IMG/VR virus record: IMGVR_UViG_3300044641_000586
Location: 1 to 25,947 of that record
Direction: 5' to 3' (one strand)
Length of the DNA: 25,947 bases
Source: a virus
Taxonomy: Duplodnaviria; Caudoviricetes
A model generated the notes under the pieces. That model did not search any database. It was not told where the DNA came from and saw only the letters and a program-made list of their open reading frames with translations. Position numbers and translations under genes: made by a program. Shown here piece by piece: positions 18,245-24,081 of this stretch; the first letter of the stretch is position 1; each line of letters starts with the position of its first letter.

Positions 18245-18273
18245 TTGACGGTGAAAGAATAGTACAGTAGACT
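18245..18273 (+). promoter_or_regulatory. Rightward sigma70-type promoter
   Basis: TTGACG (18245-18250), 17-nt spacer, TAGACT (18268-18273), upstream of the Cro-like gene. Confidence 0.75.
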
Positions 18274-19766: not shown

Positions 19767-20009
19767 TTGAGTCAAGACAAAAGTGGTCCAGCGTTTCCGT
19801 TGCATCCAAACCTTGCGCCAGCATTAGGGTGCGTGAACTCTGTTAGCGATGCAGGGATGTCTGTACGAGACTATTTCGCAGCAAAGGCTTTGCAGGGCAT
19901 CTATGCACACACTGGTGGTGGATCTCCAGATTGGGCAGAAGATGATATTGATGTTGCAGAACATTGTTATGAAATGGCTGACGCTATGTTGGAAGTGAGG
20001 TTGAGATGA
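19767..20009 (+). CDS. Conserved phage hypothetical protein
   Basis: TTG start after strong RBS AAGGAGGT. GPAFP...GMS.RDYFAAKALQG...A..CY..ADAML motif. Confidence 0.75.
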   Translation: MSQDKSGPAFPLHPNLAPALGCVNSVSDAGMSVRDYFAAKALQGIYAHTGGGSPDWAEDDIDVAEHCYEMADAMLEVRLR

Positions 20010-20021
20010 AGAAGGTAGCAA

Positions 20022-20050
20022 TTGCAATACGAACTGTTTTTAGGTAGACT
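20022..20050 (+). promoter_or_regulatory. Sigma70-type promoter for the non-coding region
   Basis: TTGCAA (20022-20027), 17-nt spacer, TAGACT (20045-20050). Same -10 hexamer as the 18245 promoter. Predicted start near 20056-20057, at the base of the first hairpin. Confidence 0.7.
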
Positions 20051-20054
20051 GACA

Positions 20055-20151
20055 TTGTTGGCGTAGGAACCGACAACGAAAGGCCGCTATCTCATGCTCC
20101 TCGCCCTCGAAAGGGGGTTCCTACCGGGGGGCAGCAGATAGCGGCTTTTTT
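20055..20151 (+). ncRNA. Candidate pseudoknotted small RNA ending in a terminator-like stem and U-tract (module 1)
   Basis: Hairpin TTGTTGG/CCGACAA with loop CGTAGGAA. Long stem GCCGCTATCT (20083-20092)/AGATAGCGGC (20136-20145), then TTTTTT. Inner stem TGCTCCTCG/CGGGGGGCA with G-U pairs. GAAA tetraloop hairpin at 20104-20117. GTAGGAACC (20063-20071) is perfectly complementary to GGTTCCTAC (20116-20124). Confidence 0.7.
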
Positions 20152-20159
20152 CATTTCTA

Positions 20160-20415
20160 CGGCCAACCGCACTCCGAGCGAGATCAAGAGCCTGCATGGG
20201 CTGCGCGGAAGAAAACACAGGCCAATCTGACACCCTGATTGCGAGCCTCCCAGCCTGTCTGCGAGGGACTGGATAACGTATGTGCTGAACGGGTGGTAGA
20301 CCCAGCACAGACGGATGAATCGCAGCCGCTAGGTACTCTGGCTCTGTCACAGGATGACAGCAGTGGGAGAGGAGGAAGCCAGACGCTTGGCTACCACCCT
20401 GGGGGAACTATGCTC
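20160..20415 (+). ncRNA. Candidate multi-stem, multi-pseudoknot RNA or ssDNA structure (module 2)
   Basis: Stems AGCCT/GGGCT, CAATC/GATTG, TGTGCTG (20281-20287)/CAGCACA (20303-20309), TCTGGCT (20337-20343)/AGCCAGA (20377-20383) and CTGTCA/TGACAG. Loop-distal pairings GGGTGGTAG (20291-20299)/CTACCACCC (20391-20399) and CTGCGA (20259-20264)/TCGCAG (20320-20325). Confidence 0.6.
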
Positions 20416-20519
20416 AGAGAAAACACTGTTAGGCAGAACCTATTGCTAACGGACAATCGATAGAAAAGTTTTTTACACAAGAGCACAAAACCTCTTTACG
20501 ATTGCGTCAGGAGGTGCAA

Positions 20520-20804
20520 ATGAAACCAGACGACGTATCAGAAGGGTGTTGGCAGGACTTCTTGGCGCATCGGAAGCAGAAGAAAGCCATCGTCACTGAG
20601 AGAGTTGTGCAGCGGATACGCACAGAGGCTGATCTTGCTGGCTACACGCTAGAGGAAGCCCTAAACGAGTGTGTAGACCGTGGCTGGCAGGGATTTAAGG
20701 CTGAGTGGGTTGCGCCTAAGAAGCCAGCTAAGAAAGAGGATTTGATCTTTGGACGAGTCATTAACATGGGTGATGCCAATGTCAGACGCCTACCCTCTCG
20801 CTGA
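20520..20804 (+). CDS. Replication initiator C-terminal-domain-only protein
   Basis: ATG 20520 after AGGAGG, 94 aa. PDDVSE..WQDFLAHRK.KKA..T.......EA..AG.TLEEAL..C..RGWQGFKAEWV resembles the C-terminal domain of lambdoid O-type initiators. Confidence 0.7.
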   Translation: MKPDDVSEGCWQDFLAHRKQKKAIVTERVVQRIRTEADLAGYTLEEALNECVDRGWQGFKAEWVAPKKPAKKEDLIFGRVINMGDANVRRLPSR

Positions 20805-21147
20805 ACGGATGATGACGCACCTTGCGACTCTCTACGGGGCGCAGAAGGTCAAATCCATGTACCTAGACGATGACAACGCAATCATGGCTGCAAATCAGTC
20901 CTGGCAGTTGTTCCTCGAGTCGGCAAACGTAGAAATCATCAAACGCATCCTCCACACGCTACCAACACTAGACCGGCAATGGCCACCCAGCCTTGCAGAG
21001 TTTGTACGGATGTATCGAGACTTCGACCGCGTAGAGCACAGAACCTATGACGCCCTGCCAGCCCCGAAAGTACAGACAGACATTGGTCGGGCTGCATTGG
21101 CAGAGATGAAAGCAAGACTACGGGTTTCCCCCAATACCAAACTATGA
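20779..21147 (+). CDS. Lambda P-like / helicase loader-like protein
   Basis: Start trimmed to 20779. L...YG, W...L, WPPSLAEF and ALPAP motifs. Directly follows the initiator-like gene. Confidence 0.6.
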   Translation: MSDAYPLAERMMTHLATLYGAQKVKSMYLDDDNAIMAANQSWQLFLESANVEIIKRILHTLPTLDRQWPPSLAEFVRMYRDFDRVEHRTYDALPAPKVQTDIGRAALAEMKARLRVSPNTKL

Positions 21148-21347
21148 CAGACGAGCAGAAAATAGTGGATGCGCTGATAGCAGACTGCAAGGAAATAACG
21201 GAGTACCACCTTGCTGGCTATCGGTTCAAGTGGAACGGGAAACAGGTGATCCGCAGGACGATGGCAGCTAGGTTGGAGAGGCTTACGTTTGCTGGGTTTG
21301 GGGATCGGTTCCCGGTAATCATCAACGACAACCGGAAAACAAAATGA
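21144..21347 (+). CDS. Hypothetical protein
   Basis: 67 aa, ATGA overlaps on both sides. Confidence 0.5.
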   Translation: MTDEQKIVDALIADCKEITEYHLAGYRFKWNGKQVIRRTMAARLERLTFAGFGDRFPVIINDNRKTK

Positions 21348-23449: not shown

Positions 23450-23475
23450 TCCCCCTATTGCAGGGGGATTTTTTT
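23450..23475 (+). terminator. Rho-independent terminator
   Basis: TCCCCCT (23450-23456), loop ATTGC, AGGGGGA (23462-23468), followed by a run of T. Confidence 0.8.
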
Positions 23476-24081
23476 GTGATCCCCAAGATCCTGCACTTCG
23501 TCTGGGTGGGCGACGAGACCAAAGCCCCGCTGCAAACCATCCAGAAGTGGAAAAACCTCAACCCTGACTTTGAGGTCAACCTCTGGGGCAACTCCGACCT
23601 GTCCAAAGGCTGGCGACTTGCCAAGCACATGAAGCACTTCTGGAAAACAGAGCTTTGTGGCGTCGCAGACTGCATGAGGTGGGAGATCCTATACGAACAC
23701 GGCGGGATCGCGTTAGACGCCGATTCAGAGCCTTCCAGGGCCATTCCTGACTGGATGCTAGAGCCGGATGTCTGGTGTTCGTGGGAGTCGGAGCTTCTCA
23801 GGCCGGGATTGCTGTCTAACGGTGCGGTAGGGGCGATCCCTAACCATCCGTTTATCGGGCAGATTGTCGATGATCTGTTGAACGACGATCCTGGCGACCT
23901 GATGGCATGGCAGTTCTCAGGCCCGACGAGGTTGACGAGTACCTGGGTGAACCACGAATACCGTGATCTCACGATCTGGCCTAGCCATTTCTTTCTGCCG
24001 GATCATTTCGCAGGACTTCCGTATTCCGGCGAGATGGTGTTTGCTCGGCAGGAGTGGAAATCGACGCGAGGTAAATGGTGA
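23476..24081 (+). CDS. Glycosyltransferase family 32 (DXD, OCH1-like)
   Basis: GTG start at 23476. IPKILHFVW.G, W..LNPD, AD.MR.EILY.HGGI.LDAD, N....A.P.HPF and SGP..LT motifs. Confidence 0.9.
   Translation: MIPKILHFVWVGDETKAPLQTIQKWKNLNPDFEVNLWGNSDLSKGWRLAKHMKHFWKTELCGVADCMRWEILYEHGGIALDADSEPSRAIPDWMLEPDVWCSWESELLRPGLLSNGAVGAIPNHPFIGQIVDDLLNDDPGDLMAWQFSGPTRLTSTWVNHEYRDLTIWPSHFFLPDHFAGLPYSGEMVFARQEWKSTRGKW

Follow-up and report, generated by a model that had tools for sequence, protein, structure and literature searches.

The analysed window, a stretch of 25,947 nucleotides, is an entire IMG/VR virus record with a completeness of 76%, and judging from its sequence it belongs to a small tailed phage of freshwater type. 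It encodes tail genes, a lysin, ERF/YqaJ recombination genes, Cro, NinB and HNH genes, and neither a CI-type repressor nor an integrase was seen in it. A rightward promoter (TTGACG-17-TAGACT), overlapped by a divergent one, lies ahead of cro at 18245-18273 and has the same -10 hexamer as the promoter of the RNA described below, and the late-early region includes a DXD glycosyltransferase at 23458-24081 (PF04488, also matching the PF12919 catalytic domain), probably a DNA or surface modification gene. An earlier note on this DNA had singled out a lone intergenic gap of about 500 nt, and with a hand-picked gene set the gap at 20010-20519 indeed measures 510 nt against 70 nt for the runner-up. 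The gap had been treated as one element, which did not hold: it comprises two separable elements that are exchanged independently, a promoter-proximal terminator hairpin module of about 100 nt (module 1) and a multi-pseudoknot RNA of about 245 nt (module 2, hereafter type A RNA). The features of the locus are as follows:

20022..20050, + strand: sigma70-type promoter-like site TTGCAA-17-TAGACT preceding module 1 (matching at 8 of 12, which is under the promoter scan's cut-off)
20053..20151, + strand: module 1, predicted attenuator or specificity RNA (5' hairpin, long stem, T6; folding z -6.3)
20055-20076, + strand: 5' hairpin of module 1, loop CGTAGGAA
20079-20103/20125-20149, + strand: arms of the long stem of module 1, then T6
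20116-20124, + strand: target GGTTCCTAC in module 1, complementary to the hairpin loop CGTAGGAA
20168..20412, + strand: module 2, type A RNA (covariation; no Rfam match)
20173-76:20206-09, 20189-92:20199-202, 20219-22:20245-48, 20250-55:20266-72, 20278-85:20305-11 and 20326-27:20332-33, + strand: type A helices (alignment/covariation)
20168-70:20178-80, 20197-98:20216-17, 20259-64:20320-25, 20292-96:20394-98 and 20301-02:20401-02, + strand: type A pseudoknots (alignment/covariation)
20329:20340, + strand: type A contact (alignment/covariation)
20231-35, + strand: second CACCC of type A (sequence)
end of 20168..20412, + strand: type A 3' tail CACCC-T-G5-AA-CTATG (sequence)
20413..20508, + strand: A-rich/AT-rich spacer that may be an unwinding region or an RNA-to-DNA switch (composition)
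20472-20502, + strand: promoter-like TTTACA/TACACA..TACGAT in the spacer (sequence)
20520..20804, + strand: mini-initiator of 94 aa, C-terminal domain only of an O-like initiator (PHROG 678 match; three helices in residues 1-67)
20779..21147, + strand: P-like helicase-loader-like protein of about 122 aa (PHROG 109, E 0.003, weak)

The 94-aa ORF covers only positions 219-292 of the 346 of PHROG 678 (O-like; E 8e-20) and has AGGAGG at 20509-20514 as its ribosome site. Just 29 codons are open in frame upstream of it, and 56 full-length initiators compared by tblastn match the window only at this ORF, with nothing in the gap below E 0.008. The description given in the earlier note, namely a C-terminal-like domain alone, with its own strong ribosome site and no in-frame helix-turn-helix upstream, is thus upheld, as are the absence of iterons (no iteron-like direct repeats were found in 19900-21200) and the P-like ORF behind the mini-initiator, the latter by a weak match to PHROG 109, to which relatives match at E 2e-4 and 4e-5. 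Stand-alone relatives of the mini-initiator with 88-106 aa made up all 18 candidates of a near-length search. Profile comparison with the PDB gave no match and fold searches no clear match; weak leads to ssDNA-binding domains were the DnaD domain 2i5u (rank 14, with Z 3.1, rmsd 3.2 and 54 aligned) and DnaT in the Atlas (0.87). No polymerase, primase, helicase or second initiator was found among the 55 of 114 ORFs scanned in two complete mini-initiator phages (structural and tiny ORFs omitted), which suggests that these phages would depend on host enzymes. The cultured phages with related domains, DC33 and P19250A, have long initiators and no gap.

The same comparisons speak to whether the missing half of the initiator decayed in place, the outcome that the earlier note had named as counting against it. 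Insertions and deletions in type A copies are single letters in 63% of cases and multiples of three in 12% of 717, ruling out the gap as decayed coding sequence; the tblastn result given above likewise rules out a decayed N-terminal domain, and a linker remnant is ruled out with a best E of 2. The gap sequence had no meaningful blastn match among 50,697 GenBank phages. Four metatranscriptome runs yielded a few short low-depth contigs (one over 20134-20324 and two over 20017-20094), too thin a coverage to speak to transcription or transcript ends.

The promoter proposed earlier lies at 20022-20050 with a score under the scan's cut-off, and a promoter-like pair occupies the matching position in relatives; the scan, run at a strict cut-off, returned no minus-strand promoter within the gap. 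Folding of 20060-20520 gives a z-score of -5.3, the source of which is module 1, since module 1 alone reaches -6.3 and module 2 alone -0.6. The claim of two heavily base-paired modules therefore holds for module 1, while the structure of module 2 shows through covariation alone. In module 1 the loop of the 5' hairpin complements a segment of 7-9 nt inside the long stem. Among the 80 distinct segments upstream that contain a T-run, 50 show such a loop-target match of at least 7 nt, part of these matches sitting within the long stem, compared with 3% of shuffles, and 34 hand-picked copies of the module contain 15 distinct loop-target sequences whose contact covaries. Module 1 has no Rfam match. 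A model of it (R2) proved too narrow, with one clear match in 100 loci and variants visible by eye missed, so that it was unusable for testing the absence of module 1 beside long initiators. The family of promoter-proximal hairpin/terminators has many length variants (window 20053-20151, L039, L043, L144, L221, L317, L322). In about 20 loci (L003, L013, L025 and others) a secreted-looking peptide of 46-49 aa, ending CTTCC..NC.TNCF, is encoded directly before module 1 and about 300 nt upstream of the RNA, the -35 box overlapping the final codons of its gene; the window is without the peptide and retains its first and last codons. In L133, L192, L238 and L176 the RNA is closely preceded by short units of tRNA-like or inverted-repeat type (GATGGTGG...CCACCATC).

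Type A RNA was collected from viral contigs with two exact patterns, which gave 119 and 104 stretches; the resulting profile matches 233 of 240 pattern-bearing sequences, 206 of them full-length, and yields 122 distinct phage copies of about 240-245 nt. Covariation was assessed on 83 representatives (mean identity 0.61) against our own tree-aware simulation null rather than R-scape. Thirteen pairs reached E<0.1, all of them canonical where assessed and including the pseudoknot pairs 20170:20178, 20198:20216 and 20260:20324, while of the 12 further pairs at E 0.1-1, 6 reflect indirect or lineage effects. Covariation at the long-range pairs 20296:20394 and 20302:20401 was seen in an earlier alignment of 78 sequences analysed without the tree null. 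The excess of G-U over A-C (45 versus 11) fixes the strand of the RNA as +. The upstream ACC, the central GGTG and the 3' CACC change together in 2 of the 83 copies, and one GGTG with two CACC partners that changes jointly with them fits a two-state fold. The conservation and covariation that the earlier note had asked about are therefore present, and the covariance-model scan against all families of Rfam 15, covering the window and the loci of 20 relatives, gave no match at the gathering cut-off: the catalogue lacks the element. Searches by blastn with type A, its 5' domain and an Acidovorax variant against the 50,697 GenBank phages, and with type A and its 5' domain against 72,556 plasmids, found no meaningful match and no plasmid copy. 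Variants with the 5' double-pseudoknot domain only and unrelated 3' parts occur at L093:1700-2050, L060, L436 and L440.

Type A copies end in CACC-G4-5-CTA(TG). A run of at least four G is present in 64 of the 83 copies, and in 42 of these YTA(T/G) comes next, against a background of 79 of 1406; in ColE1 the same combination of G-run and YTA(T/G) occurs once, at 1175. There GGGGGGCGGAGCCTATG precedes an A5 run at the end of the primer region, at what we take to be the RNA-to-DNA switch point, where an upstream G-loop pairs with the template; the G-run and CTATG of the type A tail match it, a likeness of 5-10 letters that is absent in 22 of the 64 copies with a G4 run. Behind the tail the AT-rich stretch reported at about 20455-20500 was recovered (20420-20509, GC 0.35-0.38), and the 100 nt following type A copies are 56.5% AT compared with 47% for the loci. 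No terminator lies behind type A RNA. A promoter pattern was found in 14 of 31 distinct family-1 spacers. Of 98 distinct 3' ends, 38 have an ATG behind the G-run, and in 30 of these 38 it opens a frame of at most 28 aa; the next real gene begins within 30 nt of the RNA in 2 of 84 loci, the median distance being about 115 nt.

Relatives of the mini-initiator (family 1) were gathered at 74 loci (71 IMG/VR, 3 GenBank) and sorted by the open codons upstream of the domain, one locus cut at a contig end being dropped. Type A was found near 44 of 48 short forms and near none of 25 long forms, the long-form controls coming partly from other habitats. The distance is mostly 100-600 nt, with two at 1.0-1.3 kb, and of the four misses one (L289) is a contig that stops too soon, the others being three distant proteins that lie beyond the clade. 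The short forms constitute a single clade (support 0.88) of redundant loci, and the 44 of 48 therefore counts as one event. Type A was absent from all 47 whole records that had been selected because their initiators are long or outlying (42 long, 5 outlying short; 18 of the 47 near-complete), a positive control having been run.

A second family, identified in the neighbourhood survey, consists of 98-141-aa proteins that match only the C-terminal domain of PHROG 270. Among the best 80 of 571 confirmed family-2 loci (46 short, 31 long, 3 cut), type A lies beside 16 of 46 short and 0 of 31 long forms, and a conserved element of one kind or another fills the slot beside 39 of the 46 short forms: the orphan Rfam motif Betaproteobacteria-1 (RF02932) in 8, and elements designated type B in 4, type C in 7, type D in 3 and type F in 1, the last four types having been grouped by blastn and by eye. 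In the same sample, four of the remaining short forms have at most 520 nt of upstream DNA, one of which holds a type A tail, and no element was seen beside three (L339, L359, L360). A long (TTGAA)n tandem run lies about 1 kb upstream of the short initiator at L339, where no RNA element was seen. The layout is constant, with promoter, module-1 variant, T-run, element and AT-rich spacer in this order, and close relatives switch element class from the T-run onward (L342 D/L343 C, L327 C/L317 B, L322 E/L346 C), as replicon cassettes would behave. On a tree of 74 residues with weak deep support, the short forms of family 2 split into at least three groups. The co-occurrence of element and short initiator proposed at the outset is thus strongly borne out in two protein families.

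The four further uncatalogued elements (types B, C, D and F; L317:7403-7635, L327, L341, L324) lie upstream of short family-2 initiators and have no Rfam match. Type B contains the 5' double-pseudoknot domain of type A, compensatory changes included, together with a T-loop-like GGTGCAAATCC, and its end is formed by an invariant GGGG(T/A)AGGGGG, a double G-run that presumably resembles mitochondrial CSB II. Types B and C show compensatory changes and small-set covariation, types D and F are defined by conservation or folding of one to three copies, and the folding z-scores of types B-E fall short of significance. PMC5333043 mentions a G-quadruplex hybrid at the site of mitochondrial initiation. 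Of 25 records with short initiators 8 contain RF02932, and of 25 with long initiators none does, making the short-initiator slot the first functional context for this motif. Eight copies (L318, L319, L320, L322, L323, L328, L365, L380) run on for about 80 nt past the Rfam model and finish in CACC..GGG like type A. One copy used as a blastn query against the 72,556 plasmids gave no meaningful match, and a search of 151 genomes found one copy, without phage context.

Type A is nevertheless not exclusive to short initiators. Its 95 non-redundant loci (6 partial) include 21 ahead of a family-1 mini-initiator or loader, 6 ahead of family 2, 17 ahead of a ParB-like gene and an SF2 helicase, 18 ahead of an early operon (leading, in one genome read, to ParB-like, helicase and primase genes) and 3 ahead of a primase or helicase, in all 65 of 95 at replication or early operons; 16 lie among terminase/portal (packaging) genes and 14 are unassigned. 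Four genomes with the RNA in the packaging region, found in a search of 49 RNA-bearing records, have initiators of 245 aa (G075) and 216 aa (G089), a 224-aa initiator-like HTH protein (G071), or a T7-like polymerase with a primase-helicase (G047), and in two loci (L192, L144) the RNA comes after tRNA arrays. The link to short initiators is accordingly no strict rule. The type A 5' domain was matched eight times in GTDB genomes, three times directly behind a Toprim primase gene, one of these three being in a prophage of the cultured Acidovorax sp. NB1 on NZ_BJHU01000035.1; a pattern search of 401 Burkholderiales-order genomes found only the already known copy. A P-type loader is absent, by PHROG 109 match, from the family-2 phage G073.

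We posit that the conserved pseudoknotted RNA forms a persistent RNA-DNA hybrid, by which the phage replication origin would be opened and primed, and that a ColE1-like R-loop or primer origin makes the DNA-binding half of the initiator dispensable. This interpretation, with its inferred R-loop step, we hold on balance to be somewhat probable. Type A RNA would arise by read-through of module 1, with the loop-target contact setting the level of read-through and providing phage-specific control. The central GGTG would pair with either the upstream CACCC or the 3' CACC, and in one of these states the G-rich tail may stay hybridised to the template. The mini-initiator could then bind the displaced strand and the AT-rich spacer and, together with the P-like loader, recruit the host helicase; in 60-kb relatives a phage helicase and primase may take their place on the same DNA. 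In lambda O the N-terminal domain normally creates the opened DNA, which here would be supplied by the R-loop, and copies in packaging modules might act as position-independent extra origins. The absence of a copy from 72,556 plasmids counts against an R-loop origin, as an autonomous RNA origin might be expected there. The broader proposal is that interchangeable, unrelated pseudoknotted RNAs (types A, B-D, F and Betaproteobacteria-1) specify the origin in a widespread replicon class. They would have taken over repeatedly from the DNA-binding half of lambdoid initiators, and an attenuator with a kissing loop on the same strand would provide replication control particular to each phage; this broader proposal we regard as a serious possibility falling just short of probable.

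An unlikely alternative, though the one we would weigh most heavily, is a free trans-acting phage RNA, GOLLD/ROOL-like in life style and placed behind strong promoters, for which the short-initiator link would be lineage history. It would account for the packaging-module and tRNA-array copies, for coexistence with long initiators and a T7-like polymerase, and for the compact multi-pseudoknot fold, and GOLLD and ROOL lie close to tRNAs in prophages according to PMC5737381. Such a role sits poorly with six different elements filling one slot beside short initiators of two families, the scatter of short forms over several places of the family-2 tree, variants sited immediately behind primase genes, the lack of a terminator behind the RNA, and a conserved unpaired G-run tail and AT-rich spacer. 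The adjoining terminase or portal genes at 16 of 95 loci, and the two CACC copies per GGTG that could pair between molecules, also recall the packaging-motor RNA of phi29 (pRNA), a comparison that is very improbable given that 65 of the loci are in replication or early operons and that it offers no reason for the link to truncated initiators.

Two further readings retain the locus as a control or initiation site, and to both we give little credence. A cis-regulatory leader for the downstream genes, by gating of a ribosome site or by antitermination of a long operon as in the put antiterminator RNA, would explain why the element always heads an operon behind the promoter/terminator module and why G-run plus ATG resembles a ribosome site in some copies. 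The scarcity of such ATGs (38 of 98 ends, mostly opening frames of 28 aa or less) and the distance to real gene starts argue otherwise; ribosome-site gating as a general rule is ruled out by the 2 of 84 loci with a real gene start right behind the purine run. A second promoter-like site often intervenes, the downstream genes vary widely, and the loss of the N-terminal half of the initiator would be left unexplained. Alternatively, the structure might act as single-stranded DNA, after the manner of G4-type or ssi signals, which are recognised by primase or primosome. Variants abut primase genes, G-T wobble is possible in DNA too, and the part of Weinberg 2017 (PMC5737381) consulted allows that such plasmid motifs may act as ssDNA. 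For this, the duplex would first have to be opened in some other way, and the element has its own promoter and terminator module in front. The GNRA loops, A-rich pseudoknot linker and T-loop-like sequence of type B are moreover habits of RNA.

If the R-loop origin is correct, a new 245-nt RNA family and an orphan Rfam motif would both gain a job, a hand-over from protein to RNA would have taken place more than once in abundant freshwater phages, and the cassettes would be compact, swappable replicons testable on a vector. Even under another mechanism, the slot adds five candidate RNA classes that the catalogue lacks, together with a new family of loop-target terminators. Replication started by RNA is known from ColE1, MRB plasmids and T4. 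The literature consulted described no phage replicon in which a folded RNA replaces an O-type origin-binding domain, though the RNA may be listed as an unnamed candidate in the supplements of PMC10690425 and PMC5737381; the supplement files of PMC10690425 that were searched hold no match to type A RNA, and the word 'replication' does not occur in the available part of bioRxiv 10.64898/2026.10.21.760802.

The type A system is not a member of ColE1, MRB, lambda O/P or any Rfam family. Like lambda O/P it has an O-like C-terminal domain, then a P-like gene, and an adjoining AT-rich stretch, but an RNA cassette takes the place of the N-terminal DNA-binding domain and iterons. Module 1 presumably resembles C4 antisense RNA (RF01695) in its short hairpin with loop CGTAGGAA and complementary downstream target, whereas the window has no C4-clan match at gathering or at E<=10 and the C4 model did match a C4 RNA in L438. 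Betaproteobacteria-1 shares the slot beside short initiators, and in its extended copies the CACC..GGG end, although type A does not match the RF02932 model. T4 origins consist of a promoter and an unwinding element served by the phage replisome, in contrast to a conserved complex RNA in 35-kb phages without a phage polymerase, primase or helicase among the scanned ORFs. Priming in T4 comes from an RNA-DNA hybrid made by a phage transcript (PMC3016281). The consulted parts of PMC3035462 and PMC5737381 describe MRB plasmids of Vibrionaceae, PAGEV, ARRPOF and GEBRO as Rep-less or Rep-independent replicons with structured RNAs of 220-500 nt, in which loop sequences set specificity. Type A would resemble these in Rep-independent replication, in a structured RNA and in specificity set by loops, and differs in its hosts, its fold, its lack of an Rfam match and its coupling to truncated O-type initiators. 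From ColE1 it differs by the absence of any sequence match to the RNA I/RNA II region (Rfam, plasmid blastn), by a pseudoknot-rich fold of 245 nt in phages rather than plasmids, by a module 1 loop and target on the same strand as opposed to antisense RNA I, and by a phage-encoded mini-initiator and loader. With ColE1 it has in common a long folded transcript, a G-run and CTATG before an A-rich stretch, the lack of an origin-binding Rep domain, and loop-loop recognition in a small upstream RNA. The type A system likely works as an RNA-primed replicon.
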